DNA from: an uncultured Alphaproteobacteria bacterium
GTDB taxonomy: Bacteria; Pseudomonadota; Alphaproteobacteria; RF32; CAG-239
Direction: 5' to 3'
NCBI GenBank assembly: GCA_944392315.1
Contig: CALXWH010000003.1
Span: forward strand, 22,909-86,908
DNA length: 64,000 nt
Shown here piece after piece: positions 25,837 through 63,969 of this stretch. The notes below the pieces were generated by a model. It did no database searches. It was not told the origin of the DNA and saw only the letters and a list, made by a program, of their open reading frames with translations. The position numbers and the translations under genes are program-made. Position 1 is the first letter of the stretch. Every line of letters begins with the position of its first letter.

Positions 25837-26625
25837 TTATTTGATTTTCATCTCTTTGGTTTGATTTTTTGTAGTTAAGTTGTACCATAAACCATATAAA
25901 AATGCGTTAACATATACTAAAAAATTTATTTTTTGTACGACTTTTTCGGTTAAAATTGTATTAAGTCCGATAAAAAAACCGATTTTAGAGCGAAATGTCA
26001 CACCTCTCGTGACGCTTAGCAGTTGTTGTTCTGATTTTAAGCCTTTCTTTAGGCGTTGGGTTATCTTCTTATCGCCCGTGCTGATACCGGATTTTTTTAA
26101 GATTCGGCGTAGGCCCTCATATTCTTGCACATAGCGGCTGATATATGAAAATACTAAATTTGAAAACGGTTGATAAAACGACGGCGTTTGATTATTCAAG
26201 ACCGCGACCATTCTTGATATTGGTGATATAATTTGCAACCCCATCGGGGAGGCTTCCGTTAATTCTAGGGGATACAAATTCTTTGAAACCCACTCAAAAC
26301 CGTCTAACGGTTCTAACAATAATGACAGAGATAAATTGCGCTTTATAAACTCTTTTTGCAAATAGCCCAACAGATTTTTTTCGCTCCATTCTCGTTTGCT
26401 CACAGCTTGATAAAGGTAATTAAAACTCTTTTGATGAACTTTCTTTTCTCCCAAACCTCGGATTGCCAACAGATGCAGATACTTCAGGTATTGCACAAAA
26501 AATGCCTCGTCCTTTTTTGGAATTAGCTTCAAATACAACGATAACGGCGGCAATATCACCGCTTCGTTCTTTTTACTATTCAGCAACGGAAATAGCGGCT
26601 TTTCTGTTGTCTTAACCGATTTCAT
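25837..26625 (-). CDS. Highly divergent HpnC-like squalene-synthase-fold protein
   Basis: Sits between trmFO and hpnD-like; remnants LLEPLDGF and SPISRMV; no DDxxD. Confidence 0.4.
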
Positions 26626-27961
26626 GCAGCCATCCTTCCAATGCTTTGAGTGCACGCGCCGATAAGGCTGCTTTTTTTTCGGTTCCTTTTAAATAACGCA
26701 ACTTTCCTTTAGCGGTTTCTACCTTCGGCAGTTCCGGAAACAATCCGAAATTGATATTCATCGGCTGATAGTGTTCAATATCCGTATCATCTTGCAAGTG
26801 CGCCAACTGACACCCAAATGCCGTTTCTCGCGGCGGCAGATGCGGCGTGTTCCCTTTGATGATTTCTGCGGCAAAATATCCGGCAAGCCAACCGACGGAA
26901 GCACTCTCCACATATCCTTCGCATCCGGTGATTTGTCCGGCAAACATGAGGTATGGCTTTGTTTTTAGCCGCAAATATTTATCTAGGAGAATCGGAGACT
27001 TTATGAACGTATTTTTATGAATTCCACCTAGTCTTGCAAAAACGGCGTTTTCAAGTCCCGGAATCGTGCGGAAAATGCGTGTTTGTTCGGCGTGTTTTAA
27101 TTTGGTTTGAAATCCGACCATATTGCGCAAGGTATCTTCTTTATTATCTTGTCTTAACTGCACAACCGCATAAGGACGCTCTCCGGTGTGCGGATTGGTT
27201 AGTCCAACCGGCTTCATCGGACCATACATCAGAGTATCTTTTCCACGTTCTGCCATAACTTCCACGGGCAAGCAACCGTCAAAATATGTCGGTGTTTCAA
27301 AATCGTGAAATTCAGCTTTTTCTCCGTTCAGCAACGCCTCAACAAAAGCGTAATATTGCTCTTTATCAAGCGGACAATTGATATAATCAAACTTATCGCC
27401 TTTGTCGTACCGGGATTGATACCAGGCTTTGGTAAAATCTATGCTCTCTTTATATACGACCGGGGCTATCGCATCATAGAAAGAAAGTTTTTCACCGCCT
27501 ATGGCTTCAGATATGCCGGCAGACAAAGCCTCTGAAGTCAACGGACCGGTGGCAATAATACTTAGCCCATCTTCTTCTTTGGGAAGTGAGGTTATCTCTT
27601 TTTCTATCACTTCTATTTTGGGGTGAGATTTGATTTTTTCAGTTATATAGGCGGAAAACCCCTCTCTATCCACGGCCAGAGCCCCACCTGCCGGGACTTT
27701 ATTTTTATCGGCACTTTCCATGATTAAAGATTTGGCTCGCCGCATTTCTTCATGTAATAAGCCGACGGCGTTATAAACCGCATCATCCGAACGAAGTGAA
27801 TTGGAACATACCAACTCGGCCAAAGTATCGCTTTTATGCGCTGGTGTATGTTTTTGCGGTTTCATTTCATAGAGCTTTACCTCTACACCTCTTTGTGCGA
27901 TTTGCCACGCTGCCTCGGCGCCGGCTAAACCTCCGCCTATAACGTTTATATGTTCGGACAT
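26612..27961 (-). CDS. trmFO: Folate/FAD-dependent tRNA m5U54 methyltransferase TrmFO
   Basis: [48 protein letters not shown]. Confidence 0.95.
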
Positions 27962-55419: not shown

Positions 55420-55449
55420 AAAAAAGGGAGCTCATCGGCTCCCCTTTTC
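55420..55449 (-). terminator. Terminator
   Basis: AAAAAAGGGAGC...GCTCCCCTTTTT. Confidence 0.7.
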
Positions 55450-58400
55450 TATTTATAGACATCGTAGAGTTTCTTTAAGACTTCCGGAACATCTACTTTT
55501 AATTCCGCCAATATGTACGCGGCTGTATCTAAGTTCAACCTTGCAATTGACTTAATGCTGTATTTGTCTTGATTTTCTACCCACCGCGGATTGTTATAAT
55601 CTACCCAATAACGTTCCCGATACGATGGAATGGTGTGTACACTCGGCTTTTGAATATAGAGTTTTCCGTTTGGTGCCAGATAAGCAAATTTTGCTAAATT
55701 GCCTTCTTTATCATACGATTTTACCGAAATTTCGCCATTGTTATAGAACATTATTTCCGTCTTTGTTTTGCCGTTACCATAATATTCCATAACCGCATTG
55801 CCTTTGCTGTCTGACTTAAATTCTGATGTTACACCGCCTTTTTTGCCATATACTTTCAGGCTGTCTTTTAACAGTTCGGCACTATTCTTAGCTAAATTCT
55901 GCGGCATATCGGCTTTGTTGAGTTTTAATGACTTGACTTTGCCTGTGTCATCATATTCTTTTTCAACAGAGGCTATGCCTTGTTGCTCGGTTTCTTTAAC
56001 TAACTTGCCCTTCTTGTTATATTCTTTGGTGATAAATACAAGTGGTGTTGTTTGTTCGCTTTCTGATTTTACGGTGCCATCCGGATAATATGTCTTATCT
56101 GCGAACAGTAATGTTTCCGGTTTGCGTTGTATCTCATAACGCGATTTACCGTTATCAAAGTAGTCTTCTCTTGATACAAACGCCATGACGGCATTATCCG
56201 TATAATCTTTATGCGTTTTACGGCGTATTTCTCCTGAACCATAGTATTTTTCAATCAAAATTCCGTCTTTTTCATACTTTGTATCCGTGATTAAGAGACC
56301 AGTTTTTGAGTATTCTTTCACCTCTTCCGTGCGGCCGTCTTTGGTCTTTATCGTTTTACGCAGATTTCCGTTCGGATAATAAAACTTTTGGATTTCAGGT
56401 TCAGATGTTGTTGCTTTTTCTGCTGCCTGCGTCATATGTTCTTTTGACACAACATCGGTTAAATCCTCTATATCCGGTTTGGAAACAGGGCCGATATTTT
56501 TAGCGGCCAATTCTGCCTCTTTCTTTTCTTCGGCGGTCGGGATAATAGCATTTTTAACCTTTATGTCTTCAAACGATATCGGCTCCAAATCTTCTACCAT
56601 TGGGGCAGCTTCGGCAGGAAGAACCGGAGAAACTTCCGCTTCTTTTTCACTATGCTCTATGGCCGGTTCTGTTGTTTCTTTATTTTGACTTACTGCTTTT
56701 TCCGCTACAGCCTTATTGATATTTTCATCCTTATTTACCGTTATCGCTTTTTCTATAACCGGTGTCGGAACAATTATCGGTAAAGCACTTGCCACCGGCT
56801 TATCGGCACTGATTGTCAGCTTACTTTCTTCTTTTGGCTCCAGTGTTGCTTTGACTTCCGGTGTAACTACCTTTTCGCTCGGTTGCTCTGCAATCTGCGC
56901 AGGTTCTTGCTTGATTTCCGTTGGTTGATTTTCAACCTTATCTACCACTACAGCCTTATCAGCCATCTCCGTTGCAACCGGTGCTTTAGTAGCCGTTTGT
57001 TGCGGAGTAGATATCTCTTTTTGCGGTTGAGCTATTTGTGTGGTTGCTTCTTGCTTAATCTTTGGCTCTGCTGTCTTTGAAGCGCTCTCTATTGCAGGCT
57101 CTGACGGCACCTTTGGTTCTGTTACTGGGGTTGTGGTTGGCGTATCCGCGTTTTCATATCCGCAAATATGGCCGCCTTTTATCAACTGATTATTTTTATA
57201 TACCAGATATTCTCCCAATGCCAGGTTATATTCTATATAATTGAAAGGATTGCCGGCATTTACCTCTCTGATGTAATCCATCTTATCATCATAGAATCGG
57301 ATAAAGATATCCTTATTCTTGCTCGGCTCGGCAATGAACGCATCTGTTTTTTCGTTATCGTTATAATTTGCACTAAACGCTAACTTTCCGTTTTGAGTAT
57401 AGCGCACGTATACTGATTTTGGAGAATCTTCTGCAATTGTCATCATCTCCTTTACTGCACCGTTTGGATGATAACTTCTGGCGCTTTCTGACTGTTTATC
57501 CTGATTATATGGAACTTCCGCCAATAATTCCCCTTTTTCATCAAACTTTTGCGCTATGCCTTGTTTTTGCTTTTGATAATACGGAATACTATAGATGCGG
57601 TTGCCTTTTTCATCATATACCGTTTCTACCGCATATTCGCCGCGATTATACCCTGTCGGGAACACTGCTCTTAATCTGTTTAAGCGGTCATAGCAGGCGT
57701 AATTGCTGTTCTCCGGCTTAAAAGATGTGAACTCTATGCAATCTCTCGGAATATCAAATTGAAAAGCCTTCTTTATCGTGTTTACATTGGCGTCTACTTC
57801 TAATTGCAGCTCGCTTTGTTTATTGGCAAAATCCAAACAGCCTTTATCCGGTTGTTTTAGCTCGGCTAATTTAGACGGATTGATTATTCTGGGTTTTACT
57901 TCAGGTTCGGCTCCGTCTATTTTGCCCGCCGTAAACTTTATTTCTCTTCCTTGCGGTCCATAAATTTTCGCAACGCCATCTTTTAGGCCATTTTTATATG
58001 GAAATTCCGCCGCAACGCCGCCGGTCGGAAAATAACAGGTTAATTTTCCCGATACTTTACCGTTATTATATCTTTTTCTGAAAGCTACTTGTTTGGTCGG
58101 GAAATAGCCATTGGCCATACCATCTTTTACACCTTGTTTATAATTGATTTCCGCCGTTAAATTGCCGGCTGCATCAAACTTTTGCTCAACGCCATTTTTT
58201 AGTCCGCCGACATAAGGCGTGATTTTTCGTATCATACCCGTTTCATCATAACTGATTTTGGAGGTTGTATTACCTTTGCTATCGGCTATTTCATATACGA
58301 AATTTTCCCGATAAGGTAATCCGCATTTGTTATAAGAAATGTCTCCCTCGTCTTCATATAACTCCACCAATTCTTCCAGACTTAGTTTAACGACTTTGTC

Positions 58401-59159
58401 TTTGCAATTTTCTGCGTTTAAATCCGGCGCAAAATTCAAAATATTAACATTCTCAACTTCTTTGATACTACGCCCCTGGCGGTTGAAGAAAATATTTTTG
58501 CCTTCTCTCCCAACGGCAAAAGACGCGGCAATGCGTCCATCCGGATAATAGGTGATGATATTGCCTTGACGAATCGTCTGCTGGTTTTCGGGTTTATCCT
58601 TATCTGCGGCTTTCGGCAAAACCCAAGGTATTTCTTGGCGCAGAACGCCATTGTTATCGTATCTCTTTTCTGTGCCGATTTTATTGTTTTCATTAAGATA
58701 GGTTGCTTGGGCTGCCAGTTTTCCATTGGTATAATAGTCTTCCGCATAAAAACCTTTTCCGTCTTCCAAAGCGGTGATTTGACGCGATATCTGCCCATTT
58801 GGATGATAGTAGTTCAGAACTTTTTTGACAATCTCTCCGTCTCGGATGGTCTTTTCGGCAATCACCTTACCATCTGGCGAAATAAGCTTTTCTATATGTC
58901 CGTCTTCGGTTTCTTCTTTGATAATTTTAGGCTTGTTATTGTCTTCTGGCTCTTCTTGTTTGTTTTGGGGCTTTTGAGACAATGATGCACTTAAATCCTT
59001 TTGTGCTTGTTTTTCTTCTGCTTTGGCTTCTGCCTTTTCTTCATCTAATGTATAAACTCCGACTGATGATGAATCTGTCTGCATATTGGTTGAGTTTGCG
59101 CAGACCAACGCCGGTAATGAAACTGTGAGCAATAAAGCGATACTAAGTGATTTTTTCAT
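55449..59159 (-). CDS. Large exported MORN-variant repeat protein with central P/E/A/T-rich linker
   Basis: Signal peptide; many YYxNGxL/YxxGxKxG repeats in two blocks. Confidence 0.8.
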   Translation of the reverse strand: MKKSLSIALLLTVSLPALVCANSTNMQTDSSSVGVYTLDEEKAEAKAEEKQAQKDLSASLSQKPQNKQEEPEDNNKPKIIKEETEDGHIEKLISPDGKVIAEKTIRDGEIVKKVLNYYHPNGQISRQITALEDGKGFYAEDYYTNGKLAAQATYLNENNKIGTEKRYDNNGVLRQEIPWVLPKAADKDKPENQQTIRQGNIITYYPDGRIAASFAVGREGKNIFFNRQGRSIKEVENVNILNFAPDLNAENCKDKVVKLSLEELVELYEDEGDISYNKCGLPYRENFVYEIADSKGNTTSKISYDETGMIRKITPYVGGLKNGVEQKFDAAGNLTAEINYKQGVKDGMANGYFPTKQVAFRKRYNNGKVSGKLTCYFPTGGVAAEFPYKNGLKDGVAKIYGPQGREIKFTAGKIDGAEPEVKPRIINPSKLAELKQPDKGCLDFANKQSELQLEVDANVNTIKKAFQFDIPRDCIEFTSFKPENSNYACYDRLNRLRAVFPTGYNRGEYAVETVYDEKGNRIYSIPYYQKQKQGIAQKFDEKGELLAEVPYNQDKQSESARSYHPNGAVKEMMTIAEDSPKSVYVRYTQNGKLAFSANYNDNEKTDAFIAEPSKNKDIFIRFYDDKMDYIREVNAGNPFNYIEYNLALGEYLVYKNNQLIKGGHICGYENADTPTTTPVTEPKVPSEPAIESASKTAEPKIKQEATTQIAQPQKEISTPQQTATKAPVATEMADKAVVVDKVENQPTEIKQEPAQIAEQPSEKVVTPEVKATLEPKEESKLTISADKPVASALPIIVPTPVIEKAITVNKDENINKAVAEKAVSQNKETTEPAIEHSEKEAEVSPVLPAEAAPMVEDLEPISFEDIKVKNAIIPTAEEKKEAELAAKNIGPVSKPDIEDLTDVVSKEHMTQAAEKATTSEPEIQKFYYPNGNLRKTIKTKDGRTEEVKEYSKTGLLITDTKYEKDGILIEKYYGSGEIRRKTHKDYTDNAVMAFVSREDYFDNGKSRYEIQRKPETLLFADKTYYPDGTVKSESEQTTPLVFITKEYNKKGKLVKETEQQGIASVEKEYDDTGKVKSLKLNKADMPQNLAKNSAELLKDSLKVYGKKGGVTSEFKSDSKGNAVMEYYGNGKTKTEIMFYNNGEISVKSYDKEGNLAKFAYLAPNGKLYIQKPSVHTIPSYRERYWVDYNNPRWVENQDKYSIKSIARLNLDTAAYILAELKVDVPEVLKKLYDVYK

Positions 59160-59287
59160 AACAGCACCATAATTCCTAAAATTCAAAAATAAAGTTCTCC
59201 GTTGTTGATTTAAACATATCTCTCTTATTTTTTAAAGCATAAATTCGCATTTACACAGCTTGTTTTTGCTTGCTTAGTTTCTTGATA

Positions 59288-60532
59288 TTATAAGGCTTTT
59301 ACTTTTTCTAACATAAGTTTTGTTTTTTGATTTTGAAAGTCTTGCGGCGTTATTTTTTGGGTTTTAAGTTGGTTTAAGAGCTGATGAAACTCAGGAATCT
59401 CATTTAAGTGTATTTGTGAGGCTTTTTCATATAGCTCTCGTAACGCCTTCTCTATTTCTCTAAAATTTTGCTCATCGGTTTTAGGAATTTCATAATCTCG
59501 CCCGTGTATATCCGCAGACATGACCGCGATAAAACGCTCCAAATATATCTTTTGCGGAAAATTGTGCAAACAAATGGCTATCTGCATCAGCTGCTTTTTG
59601 ACTTTTGATAACGGATTGTGCGATACCATATGATTTAGAGCACAAAATCTGGCAAACTTTGTATAAGCCGCGGGAAAATGCAGCCTTTTGGATATATCGG
59701 CGATGATTTTATCTCCCAATACATCGTGCCCTTTGTGCGAAGGCCATCTTTGCGGATTTGTCGCGCCTTTGCCGACATCATGCAGTAATGTCCCAAAATT
59801 TACAAACGCATCATCTGAGGCAATTGCTTGGAGCGCCAGCAATGTATGTTGTCCGCTATTACCTTCAGGGTGATAATCCAATCTTTCCGGAACGCTCCAG
59901 AGTTTGTCTACTTCAGGCAATATTTCTTGTAATGCGCCACATTCTCTGGCTGTTAAGATGAATTTGTCAAAATGCTTACAATGCAAAGCCTTTTCTATTT
60001 CACACCAGATGCGTTGCGGGCTCAAATTTTTTAACTCGCCGTTTTGCACCATCCGGCGGCATAATTCCATGGTTTCCAAAGCCACCGCAAAATTTAACTG
60101 CGCGGCAAAACGACACATCCGTAAAACTCGTAGCGGATCTTCACAAAAATGGTCGGAAATGTGTCGTAAAATATGATTTTTGATATCCTCTAACCCGTTA
60201 TGATAATCTATGATTTGATTTGTTTCTTCATCAAAGTAAAGGGCATTACAGGTAAAATCGCGCCGTAGAGAATCTTCCTCTAACGTGATATCCGGCGTAA
60301 ACTCAAACTTAAAATCTTGATGTCTTTTGCCTGTTTTTATTTCTTTTCTCGCTAATGCATATTCTTCACCGGTTTTTGGGTGCAAAAAAACAGGAAAGCT
60401 TTTGCCCACTTTCTTAAAGCCTAAAGATATCATTTCTTCTTCAGTTCCGCCTAAAACAACGTAATCTTTATCTTGACTTGGTCTTTGCAATATCTTGTCT
60501 CTGACGGCACCGCCAACCTGATAAAAACGCAT
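59288..60532 (-). CDS. cca: Multifunctional CCA-adding enzyme with HD domain
   Basis: VGGAVRD, DKD, EYALAR, RRDFTCNA, EDPLRVLR, HPE...LLHDVGKG. Confidence 0.92.
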   Translation of the reverse strand: MRFYQVGGAVRDKILQRPSQDKDYVVLGGTEEEMISLGFKKVGKSFPVFLHPKTGEEYALARKEIKTGKRHQDFKFEFTPDITLEEDSLRRDFTCNALYFDEETNQIIDYHNGLEDIKNHILRHISDHFCEDPLRVLRMCRFAAQLNFAVALETMELCRRMVQNGELKNLSPQRIWCEIEKALHCKHFDKFILTARECGALQEILPEVDKLWSVPERLDYHPEGNSGQHTLLALQAIASDDAFVNFGTLLHDVGKGATNPQRWPSHKGHDVLGDKIIADISKRLHFPAAYTKFARFCALNHMVSHNPLSKVKKQLMQIAICLHNFPQKIYLERFIAVMSADIHGRDYEIPKTDEQNFREIEKALRELYEKASQIHLNEIPEFHQLLNQLKTQKITPQDFQNQKTKLMLEKVKAL

Positions 60533-60679: not shown

Positions 60680-60756
60680 GGATGCGTAGCTCAGTTGGCT
60701 AGAGCAACTGACTCTTAATCAGTGGGTCCAGGGTTCGAATCCCTGCGCGTCTACCA
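60680..60756 (+). tRNA. trnK: tRNA-Lys(CTT)
   Basis: Cloverleaf: GGATGCG/CGCGTCT acceptor, ACTGA-CTCTTAA-TCAGT anticodon arm, GGTTCGAATCC, encoded CCA. Confidence 0.95.
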
Positions 60757-62218: not shown

Positions 62219-62677
62219 CTATTTATCCGCACAAGTAAATGGTCTGCATTTGCTATTTTTTAGCATATAATCATTTACATTTGTTTCACCTGCGTACAAA
62301 TTTCCAACCAGACGCTTCTCTCCTTTGCATACGTTTTCCGGTGTTTCTTCAAAGTAAATTTTACCTTCGTTGAAATCTAATAATTTTTTCAATGTCTTTT
62401 GAGCCTCTTTACCTAATATTTTTACTTCTTCCGGTTCAATCTTCATTTCACGAGCTTGTTTTAAAGATTTATCACTTGTTCTAATCTCCGGACAATCCAC
62501 ATTAGCTAACCTTATGGTAACTTTTTCTTGTCCCTTTACGGCCTTTATTGTATCTCCATCACTCACTTTAGTCACAACAATTGGTTCCTTTACTTTTTTA
62601 TCAGTTTCGGCAAAACTATTGGTAAACGCTGCACTTGCCAGTAAAATAGTCATTAGCGGTAATATGATTTTTTTCAT
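62219..62677 (-). CDS. Thermonuclease (SNase-like), secreted
   Basis: Signal peptide, VSDGDTI, IRLANVDCPE, KRLVG; SD GGGGAG. Confidence 0.85.
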   Translation of the reverse strand: MKKIILPLMTILLASAAFTNSFAETDKKVKEPIVVTKVSDGDTIKAVKGQEKVTIRLANVDCPEIRTSDKSLKQAREMKIEPEEVKILGKEAQKTLKKLLDFNEGKIYFEETPENVCKGEKRLVGNLYAGETNVNDYMLKNSKCRPFTCADK

Positions 62678-62701
62678 AACAAATCTCCCCATTATTGCAT
62701 T

Positions 62702-62945
62702 AAAAAGAAAACCACCTTCAAAAAGGCGGTCGGAGAGTTCGTAAATCATATATGGTTAGATGACTCTTTTAGCCTTTCAGACTATTTTTTTCAAGGATCA
62801 AGATAGTCTTTGGACATACGCTAAAAGCCCCCCGACCTTCATCGGGGATATACGTCATTGTCTTATTACAATAACTAACGATGTTATCCAACACCGAACC
62901 ATATTAAAGAGCTTACGACAGCTCCGCACCTTTCTCAAGGTACCG
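62702..62945 (-). ncRNA. C4/CI-like antisense RNA module with a1/b1 targets and terminator
   Basis: Target loops TCGTAA and ATATGGTT upstream; complementary TTACGA and AACCATAT in a downstream cloverleaf closed by 62837-62828/62737-62728; terminator 62730-62702. Confidence 0.6.
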
Positions 62946-62949
62946 TTTT

Positions 62950-62982
62950 ATGCTATAGAATTATGAGTTAATTTATAGTTAA
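62950..62982 (-). promoter_or_regulatory. CtrA-box-like site (TTAA-N7-TTAAC) with TAGCAT -10
   Basis: Minus strand TTAActataaaTTAAC-11 nt-TAGCAT immediately 5' of the RNA module. Confidence 0.4.
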
Positions 62983-63081
62983 GACGGCTTTTTCGTTTAT
63001 AACATTTGTTTTTTGTTGAAATCGCAATTTTTTTATCTACACTTTGTTTTAGACTTATACCTATTCATTGGAGAGCGTACT

Positions 63082-63420
63082 ATGCAGCGTTGTATTGAAC
63101 CTAATATTAAAATTGAAGATACCGGCTTTGGATATACCATGTCTATTATCGGCGGTAAATATAAAATGATTATCTTATATTGGTTAGGCGAATTTAATGT
63201 GTTGCGTTATAACGCTTTGCAACGTCTTATCGGTAAAATATCCTTTAAAATGCTTAGCTCTACCTTAAAAGAATTAGAGGCAGACGGTTTGGTTATTCGT
63301 ACCGTCTACCCCCAGATGCCTCCTAAGGTGGAATATAGCCTTTCACCTAAAGGAAAATCGCTTATTCCAATATTATTTTCTTTGTGTGATTGGGGAGATA
63401 AAAACCGTCCGCACTTATAA
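63082..63420 (+). CDS. HxlR family winged-helix regulator
   Basis: IGGKYKMIIL, ISFKMLSSTLKELEADGLV, PPKVEYSLS. Confidence 0.9.
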   Translation: MQRCIEPNIKIEDTGFGYTMSIIGGKYKMIILYWLGEFNVLRYNALQRLIGKISFKMLSSTLKELEADGLVIRTVYPQMPPKVEYSLSPKGKSLIPILFSLCDWGDKNRPHL

Positions 63421-63969
63421 TGATGCGCCCAAGGATTTGGCTTCTTCCAGGGCTTTGTGTCCCTCTATATCTCCAATGTGCAGCACACCTCCGGCAACCA
63501 CAATTCCGAGATTATGCCATTCCAGATTTTTTAGTAACGACATATAGTATTTCTCTACAGGTTCAAAATTGCTTTTACTGTCGCCCTCGGAGGCCATTAG
63601 TAAAATACAGTCCTTCTTTGGGTTTTCATAAGATGGATTACATTCTGCTACGGCAAATAATCTGTCAAAAGCACATTTTAATTGGCCGGAAAATCCCCAA
63701 TAATACATCGGGGACGCTAATACGACTATTTCTGCGGCCATGTATTCCGGATAAATTTTTAACATATCGTCCTTTTGCACGCATGGACTTAATTTATCTT
63801 TGCCACCACCAAAACATCCGCGGCATCCATGGATGTTCATGGTTTGTAAATCAAAACATTTTACTGTGTGGCCTTTACTTTCTGCGCCTTCCGTAAATTT
63901 TTGTATTAATGCTTTGGTGTTCCCGTTGGGACGAGGACTGCCGTTTAAGATTATAATTCTTTTACTCAT
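63415..63969 (-). CDS. Flavodoxin family / iron-sulfur flavoprotein (NADPH-dependent FMN reductase fold)
   Basis: NGSPRPNGNT, CRGCFG...CVQKDDM, ASPMYY, LKCAFDR. Confidence 0.88.
   Translation of the reverse strand: MSKRIIILNGSPRPNGNTKALIQKFTEGAESKGHTVKCFDLQTMNIHGCRGCFGGGKDKLSPCVQKDDMLKIYPEYMAAEIVVLASPMYYWGFSGQLKCAFDRLFAVAECNPSYENPKKDCILLMASEGDSKSNFEPVEKYYMSLLKNLEWHNLGIVVAGGVLHIGDIEGHKALEEAKSLGASL

Follow-up and report, generated by a model that had tools for sequence, protein, structure and literature searches.

What kind of RNA stands in front of the two SNase-family genes in this window, and what does it do to them? The window is a 64,000-nt stretch of DNA from an uncultured alphaproteobacterium (genome G000, 1.56 Mb), and the RNA in question is a leader encoded on the minus strand directly upstream of the first of these genes. 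The initial annotation had described it as a C4/CI-type antisense switch, repurposed to gate exported nucleases and perhaps also to answer related incoming elements. As far as the sequence tells, the leader consists of two domains: a 5' domain with a hairpin, a second hairpin that presents a short segment (a1) in its loop, and a single-stranded segment (b1); and a 3' cloverleaf that exposes the complementary segments b' and a'. We hold it reasonably probable that the SNase operon begins with a cis attenuator, namely this 5' leader, that private a/b pairs set its fold, and that it belongs to a family with C4-like topology that includes the Brt-type locus on a Bartonella plasmid. Most likely it switches off the two secreted-nuclease genes behind it.

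All elements described by the initial annotation were recovered on the minus strand within 62950-62695, each at the position it had been assigned. The 256-nt RNA spanning these positions folds with a minimum free energy of -85.2 kcal/mol, compared with -57.9 ± 4.7 kcal/mol for 200 dinucleotide-preserving shuffles (z = -5.79; none of the 200 was as good). The 5' domain opens with the hairpin P0 (ACCTT-GAGA-AAGGT, with a GAGA loop; 62941-62928), followed by the a1 hairpin (62925-62908), in which a 5-bp stem (strands V and V') closes an 8-nt loop containing a1 (TCGTAA, 62918-62913). Then come b1 (ATATGGTT, 62904-62897), two small hairpins, hp1 (62896-62879) and hp2 (62875-62854), and the strand X (CCCCGA, 62847-62842). 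The cloverleaf is closed by its 5' strand Y (GGTCGGGGGG, 62837-62828) and its 3' strand Z (CTCTCCGACC, 62737-62728). Inside it, arm 1 (62827-62766) is formed by CTTTTAGC/GCTAAAAG with a variable inner hairpin, and its internal loop GTATGTCCAA ... GAAAG is nearly invariant in sequence. Arm 2 (GTCAT/ATGAT, 62764-62745) carries a 10-nt loop that holds b' (AACCATAT, 62757-62750), the partner of b1, and a' (TTACGA, 62744-62739), the partner of a1, lies in the single-stranded linker. The last 4 nt of Z form the base of an intrinsic-terminator-like hairpin (62731-62710; 9 pairs, 4-nt loop), which with its T-run (tail TTCTTTTTAA) extends to 62702.

The conservation of this structure was quantified on 26 full-length copies from the genus, aligned with helices a and b written as pseudoknots. 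On this alignment, 92.8% of the cells of the whole structure were paired, compared with 81.4% in shuffles (0 of 500 as high), and sliding the 3' partners by 1-3 columns reduced the pairing to 36-49%. Both long-range helices covaried. Helix a (a1:a') was paired in 100% of cells with double changes in 4 of its 6 pairs; helix b (b1:b') was paired in 95.7% with double changes in all 8, and six of its eight columns contained 4-6 pair types. The local elements of the genus copies were paired in 81% (P0, 4/5 pairs doubly changed), 97.6% (a1 stem, 2/5), 92.9% (hp1), 94% (terminator stem) and 71.5% of cells (hp2, a poorly aligned region); distant family members have no hp2. Two wider sets extended the comparison for the cloverleaf, namely a class sample of 30 copies and a set of 79 named copies that had been preselected for the sequence of Y. 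The closing stem Y:Z was paired in 98.5% of cells in the genus and in 98.6% in the class sample, where 7 of 10 pairs were doubly changed. For arm 1 and arm 2, pairing reached 97.8% and 97.0% in the class sample and 97.4% and 95.0% in the named copies, with all 8 and all 5 pairs doubly changed in both sets. Thus, at the level of sequence comparison, the cloverleaf is backed by covariation. Many G-U pairs hold on one strand only. At several loci the family model also gave weaker matches (13-26 bits) to the reverse strand of the very sites it had found, because the helices are near-palindromic, so strand calls for weak matches need care. The class sample includes two rows, L053 and L069, from a genome marked unpublished (G077); they also enter the counts for addresses, Z:Shine-Dalgarno complementarity, downstream targets and the RCC and RCCA motifs after Z given below, and none of the claims depends on these two rows alone.

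The a1/a' and b1/b' complementarity reported by the initial annotation proved to be real, covarying among the 26 homologues and specific to each locus. We compared self and non-self combinations for the 107 copies having enough upstream sequence. Within the 120 nt upstream in the same copy, 85 of the 107 b' loops had a Watson-Crick complement of 6 nt or more, as against 789 of 11342 non-self combinations; for the a' linker the corresponding counts were 98 of 107 and 1093 of 11342. By reading, several of the 22 weak b cases reflected the model's placement of the loop boundary or G-U pairs. The spacing was also regular, b1 starting 11-14 nt past a1 in 87 of the 107 copies. At the same time, the addresses are much more variable than the other helices: in the genus, column entropy reached 1.35-1.38 bits in b1/b' and 0.69-0.83 bits in a1/a', compared with 0.08-0.44 bits in all of the others, and 18 distinct b1 sequences occurred among the 26 copies. 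Four genomes with 5, 9, 5 and 5 copies had 24 distinct b' loops; in one of these genomes, four paralogues had a common a and differed in b only. The five copies in G000 carry five different a/b pairs. These comparisons show that a1:a' and b1:b' are selected to pair and are locus-specific.

How could such a fold act on the gene behind it? The position just before the SNase Shine-Dalgarno sequence, as initially annotated, was confirmed, and the Shine-Dalgarno region W (TGGGGAG, 62691-62685) has a 7-nt complementarity to Z, which makes Z an anti-Shine-Dalgarno strand as well as the 3' strand of the closing stem. In the inspected copies the terminator stem opens with the last 3-4 nt of Z. Y has a second possible partner in the Z-like strand X, which lies just 5' of it, and the resulting rival hairpin of the initial annotation (62847-62830) is present as listed. 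Complementarity of at least 7 nt between Z and the region directly before the start codon was found in 12 of the 26 genus copies (for example TCGGAGAG and TGGGGAG) and exceeds plain GGAG; a complementary run of at least 7 nt occurred in 38 of 133 copies overall, not all of them adjoining a start codon. Compensating variants of the two partners were seen in ACTTCTC/GGGAAGT (L019), CACCCC/GGGGTG (L045), ACATCC/GGATGT (L055) and ACTTCC/GGAAGT (the G000 copy on contig C11). By reading, the GGAG-type strand 5' of a1 is complementary to the 5' half of Z, and therefore the a1:a' contact could extend into Z. Hand-built alternative folds of the window RNA had energies close to one another, from -57 to -66 kcal/mol. 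Taken together, the X/Y/Z/Shine-Dalgarno set looks like a switch of termination and translation. Its new features are that a closing-stem strand overlaps the terminator and complements the Shine-Dalgarno region, and that X competes with Z for Y.

The leader is not confined to this locus. A DNA search of G000 returned one other copy (contig C5, 71% identity), which stands before a lipoprotein-like open reading frame, and covariance models together with the Rfam sRNA-Xcc1 model added three further, more compact copies (contigs C20, C11 and C4), giving five diverged copies overall. Among relatives, a DNA search matched 31 of 61 genomes including G000; 28 of these belong to the genus, which is represented by 35 genomes besides G000, and each carries 1-5 copies. 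We then relied on two covariance models of the 3' domain, R1 built from 26 copies and R2 from the 79 named copies. With R1, 18 of 151 genomes representing one genome per alphaproteobacterial family matched, G000 included. An exact-pattern scan for the conserved core returned at least 120 stretches, nearly all from Alphaproteobacteria among the matches listed; these named Rickettsia, Rhizobium, Shinella, Devosia, Sphingomonas, Celeribacter, Xanthobacter and gut metagenome-assembled genomes as carriers. R1 confirmed the named loci, with 79 matches in the 77 loci submitted (of 80 listed). In the family to which a Rhizobium genome belongs, 20 of 141 sampled genomes carried matches; R2 run on four smaller genomes of that sample (1.1-2.8 Mb) gave one match in one and none in the other three. 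Among the matches listed, the core also occurred outside the class, in several Acidobacteriaceae (e.g. Granulicella rosea) and one Flavobacteriaceae metagenome-assembled genome (the non-alphaproteobacterial loci being L090, L109, L117, L122, L130, L132, L135 and L137), a sign that the family may have spread horizontally past the Alphaproteobacteria. One locus of the class sample carries a 16S fragment that reads alphaproteobacterial. Some copies are tandem, 300-650 nt apart (L143 2600-2743 and 2907-3040; G207 C1:3003736-3004516; G302 C1:294373-295081), recalling the reported tandem array of sRNA-Xcc1 in Xylella. Judged from these sequence matches, this is a large and largely unrecognised family of leader RNAs across Alphaproteobacteria. 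The compact copy on G000 contig C4 (46932-47014, L200) has no open reading frame with a Shine-Dalgarno sequence nearby by eye, and in another genome a similar variant (L055) directly follows a 5S rRNA gene; these two may be free-standing RNAs.

What do the leaders precede? In most of the 54 copies of the genus and class samples, an open reading frame with a Shine-Dalgarno sequence starts 12-37 nt past the element. In the window this is an SNase-family gene with a signal-peptide-like N-terminus (62677-62219, minus strand; Pfam SNase E = 9.9e-07), which starts 25 nt past the terminator. It is followed after 6 nt by a second SNase-family gene, again with a signal-peptide-like N-terminus (62213-61737, minus strand; E = 6.7e-06), and then by a gene for an acidic 234-amino-acid protein without a Pfam family (61721-61017, minus strand), with the same gene order in a relative. 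The second SNase gene and the gene of the 234-amino-acid protein are probably in the same operon as the first. Downstream of the 54 copies, Pfam assigned SNase nine times, outer-membrane beta-barrel four times and PMT_2 twice; autotransporter, Chlam_PMP, pyruvyl transferase, FkbM, PAP2, MCP, Bor, TM2, DUF1232, HTH_3 and YpsA appeared once each, and 27 of the 54 reading frames had no Pfam family. Downstream of 74 named copies we found HTH_3 (6), DUF5818 (6) and outer-membrane beta-barrel (2), with one or two each of autotransporter, Bor, glycosyltransferase 2, DegT, EcoRI-type methylase (2), GmrSD, GGDEF/EAL (2), RovC (2) and TraM. Thus a one-off repurposing for nucleases gives way to a class-wide leader family before many kinds of genes, and the downstream theme, as read from these families, is envelope and accessory functions, not phage anti-repressors.

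We compared the leader with known regulatory RNAs. At gathering thresholds, Rfam found only a tRNA in the window. The expectation that Rfam models would place the leader in the C4 clan was not borne out: the clan (CL00128) gave no match at E<=10 in the 501 nt of 62600-63100; across the whole of G000, RF01695 (C4) gave 0 matches at E<=10 and RF03163 (c4-a1b1) reached at best 17 bits, elsewhere in the genome. Permissive Rfam scans that included distant copies likewise returned no C4-clan match, and neither R1 nor R2 matches phage P1. With the same tool, the P1 control scored 68.8 bits for C4 and 51 bits for c4-a1b1. The resemblance lies in the architecture. The proposed likeness in element order held up against both the P1 record, which annotates a1, b1, c4, a2, b2 and icd in this order, and the consensus structures of RF01695 and RF03163 (P1/P7), which share with the leader the succession of hairpin, a1 in a loop, b1, spacer and closed RNA. 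The C4 consensus, with a closing stem, a first hairpin, a second hairpin of 5 bp with a large b' loop and a 7-nt a' linker, has the topology of the leader. Unlike C4, the leader has a much larger arm 1 with a conserved internal loop, and its closing stem has a built-in terminator and an anti-Shine-Dalgarno strand, with no a2/b2 at the ribosome site; among 30 copies, the best complements downstream were mostly 4-6 nt long, at no fixed position. Its setting also differs, being chromosomal rather than phage immunity (icd/ant, kil), with SNases in the window and envelope, regulator, restriction-modification and other genes behind other copies. Like C4, the leader has RCC(A) after the closing stem: RCC follows Z in 23/26, 27/30 and 53/79 copies of the genus, class and named sets, and RCCA in 0/26, 15/30 and 25/79. 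C4 is reportedly processed by RNase P, and the processed RNA has a tRNA-like CCA end.

Other known systems share part of this design. P4 CI RNA pairs with seqA upstream and seqC downstream and thereby causes termination (PMC4825925); like the leader, it uses an upstream target (seqA). In the Gifsy-1 prophage of Salmonella, the a1b1-type IsrK and a processed downstream RNA (IsrK/STnc1160) share complementary sequences and control termination and translation of the same transcript. Unlike the leader, IsrK has a prophage antiterminator as its setting; its model matches the a1b1 region of P1 and has no match at the leader. The best Rfam match was sRNA-Xcc1 (RF02221), which scored 18.9 bits for the window copy, 35.5 and 35.4 bits for two other G000 copies, and 33.2 and 32.1 bits for two distant ones (one from G077), all below the 53-bit gathering score. 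In topology it agrees with the leader, and its closing stem is similar in sequence. sRNA-Xcc1 occurs in multicopy arrays and adjoins C4 and isrK in Xylella (PMC12189769), and it is found on APSE phages (bioRxiv 10.1101/2020.03.17.996009); unlike the leader, it was described as a short trans-acting sRNA from integron cassettes, plasmids and phages of Xanthomonadaceae.

The closest experimentally studied relatives are probably the Brt RNAs. Brt1-9 (Tu et al. 2016) are multicopy RNAs of 194-203 nt that rank among the most abundant transcripts of Bartonella, end in a 3' terminator about 15 nt before a poorly transcribed HTH-XRE gene, were reported as specific to the genus, and include one copy on a B. 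grahamii plasmid (PMC5387305); deletion of the 3' stem-loop of brt1 raises transcription of trp1 (PMC8070961). The leader has the same outline, being predicted as an RNA of about 200 nt whose final stem-loop is a few nucleotides away from the gene that follows. R2 matched the B. grahamii plasmid pBGR3 at full length (26544-26688; 37 bits, E = 1e-8), directly before the only HTH regulator gene of the plasmid; R1 gave 25.1 bits, and by eye the locus has matching a1/a' and b1/b'. HTH_3 genes, like the HTH-XRE genes behind Brt, follow some of the leaders (1 of 54 and 6 of 74 copies), whereas the window has an SNase gene where Brt always has HTH-XRE. We saw no a/b address pairs, cloverleaf or link to C4 in the parts of PMC5387305 and PMC8070961 consulted, and a literature search of limited coverage returned no link from Brt, sRNA-Xcc1 or C4 to a class-wide alphaproteobacterial family. 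Thus the C4-like architecture and the Brt-type attenuator are known, and the class-wide distribution, the private addresses and the four-strand switch appear to be new.

These observations can be put together in the following model of the attenuator. During transcription, the local hairpins would take precedence, with X:Y forming at the start, the terminator next and the pairing of Z to the Shine-Dalgarno region last. RNA synthesis would then mostly stop at about 62702 and any read-through would be poorly translated, so that the default state is OFF. When b1:b' and a1:a' instead nucleate the long-range fold, the strand just 5' of a1 would pair with Z and the 5' strand of the terminator, which would free the Shine-Dalgarno region and weaken the terminator (ON). 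Terminated leaders would accumulate, and their exposed a' and b' could occupy a1 and b1 on nascent transcripts of their own locus only, block the ON fold and thereby exert negative feedback as in C4/CI. The private a/b code would keep the five paralogous loci of G000 from cross-talk. An abundant terminated leader whose 3' hairpin attenuates the downstream gene is a part of the model taken over from the relatives, and by analogy with C4 the leaders probably feed back on themselves in trans. Contacts between molecules are invoked because no other model accounts for the fast divergence of the addresses and for their being different in every paralogue.

Several points weigh against this attenuator model. 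The terminated or processed RNA, its ends and its action in trans are predictions, and the a and b helices could be purely intramolecular. The X:Y pairing shows little covariation, with 98.1% of cells paired but no double changes in the genus, and 90.8% paired with a weak 2 of 7 double changes in the class sample. Part of the signal from Z and the Shine-Dalgarno region is what one would expect of the CTCC in Z, a generic anti-Shine-Dalgarno sequence. The 5' segment is pairable with Z and the terminator in 84% of cells, hardly above shuffles (9 of 500 as high). One locus, L017 (genome G034), keeps its a pair and has mismatched b1 (ATAAGGTT) and b' (TGAGCAAT), perhaps through recombination or as an address broken in nature. 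The link to Brt is drawn through a single Bartonella sequence, that of pBGR3. Finally, brt1 was published (PMC8070961) as a riboswitch-like element whose reporter responds to heme, not as a self-antisense RNA.

That description of brt1 also favours the most serious rival, which we judge possible rather than probable: a purely cis-acting riboswitch or sensor, in which the arm-1 loop binds a small molecule, an ion or a protein and thereby chooses between Y:Z and X:Y plus terminator, the a and b helices being structural only. The internal loop of arm 1 (GTATGTYCARR ... YAAAG) is indeed the best-conserved unpaired sequence across the class, and the four-strand layout is typical of riboswitch expression platforms. 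Yet no known riboswitch model scores at the leader, the downstream genes are too diverse for the logic of one metabolite, and a sensor leaves unexplained why a and b are 3-10 times more variable than the other helices and why all 24 paralogues in four genomes have different b pairs. The leader might alternatively be a free-standing C4-like antisense RNA with targets elsewhere (phages, plasmids or other messages), for which a1/b1 would serve as decoy or processing aid and the downstream gene would be incidental. Its C4 topology, the RCC/RCCA past the closing stem (a feature of tRNA-like substrates of RNase P), the trans action and mobile elements described for the related sRNA-Xcc1 and the copy on contig C4 without a nearby reading frame would fit such an RNA. 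We nevertheless consider it improbable. A search of its own genome for a two-part trans target gave 8 matches, compared with 8 for a control pattern, and the 30 copies have no consistent a2/b2 downstream; moreover, two features link the RNA to the gene behind it, the tightly conserved distance to the Shine-Dalgarno sequence and start codon and the covariation of the Shine-Dalgarno region with Z.

Could the element act as DNA, as a miniature inverted-repeat transposable element (MITE), a recombination site or an insertion target without RNA function? The opposite-strand model matches noted above would agree with this, as would an insertion of an IS110-family element (IS, insertion sequence) of 1162 bp, encoding a 308-amino-acid DEDD transposase (Pfam E = 1.1e-27), in strand Y of an orthologous SNase leader (L012 1631-2792, genome G033). 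The insertion site is GGTCGGGG^AGCTTTT, equivalent to about 62830/62829 in the window, and the same junction of IS end and leader recurs at the starts of L016 (G018) and L033 (G009); the recurrence in three genomes means that the element seems to target the conserved leader core. Against this stand the G-U pairs valid on one strand only, the layout of promoter, leader, terminator and Shine-Dalgarno sequence in fixed orientation towards the gene, and the relatives that are abundant RNAs in Bartonella, so that we regard a purely DNA-level role as very improbable. The initial annotation had itself pointed to a MITE with many genomic copies as an outcome that would speak against an RNA switch; G000 has five diverged copies only, each in front of a gene of its own, with at most 71% identity to the window copy and no terminal repeats seen, and a MITE or dispersed repeat was rejected. 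An integron attC site was rejected as well, the copies being dispersed, not arrayed, each with its own promoter and terminator, and the G-U pairs being valid on a single strand.

The surroundings of the leader add some further observations. By eye, a possible promoter consists of TTAACT (62982-62977), an 18-nt spacer and CTATAG (62958-62953) on the minus strand; a sigma-70 scan of the window did not list this candidate (62982-62953) among its sites. In several homologues, a clear sigma-70-like TTGACA-17-TAnnnT lies 10-35 nt upstream of the first hairpin. Upstream of the leader and divergent from it is a gene for an HxlR-type regulator (63013-63420, plus strand), which shares with it the intergenic region 62945-63013; an FMN-reductase-like gene (63415-63969, minus strand) is convergent with the HxlR gene, their 3' ends overlapping by 6 nt. 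Farther on, past the operon, lie a tRNA (60680-60753, plus strand), a gene for a CCA-adding enzyme with PolyA_pol and HD domains (59288-60532, minus strand) and a gene for a repeat-rich secreted protein of 1245 amino acids (55449-59186, minus strand). The window contains 10 occurrences of the b1 octamer ATATGGTT, compared with 2.6 expected (0 of 100 shuffles reach 10), and eight of the ten sites are far from the leader.

What would such leaders mean for the bacteria that carry them? We put forward tentatively, as an idea that is more doubtful than likely, that they are class-wide programmable RNA "locks": each accessory or surface gene would have a C4-like cloverleaf that reads only the a1/b1 of its own leader and silences its own locus in trans, and Brt, sRNA-Xcc1 and C4/CI would form one ancient superfamily. 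If this is true, a gene would fire in a burst on entering a cell without its RNA, for example by horizontal transfer, and then be silenced, a pattern fitting for the genes behind the leaders, which include those of restriction-modification methylases, regulators and surface proteins, while orthogonal codes would insulate paralogues. The closing stem of a tRNA-like RNA would have terminator and Shine-Dalgarno masking fused into it, and the leaders would offer more than 100 naturally occurring, orthogonal loop-loop address pairs set in one constant scaffold, a collection useful for studies of RNA-RNA specificity and for synthetic control. The Brt RNAs would gain a concrete structure and mechanism, and the phage immunity of C4/CI and the supposedly Bartonella-specific Brt would be united as a widespread regulatory principle for chromosomal genes.

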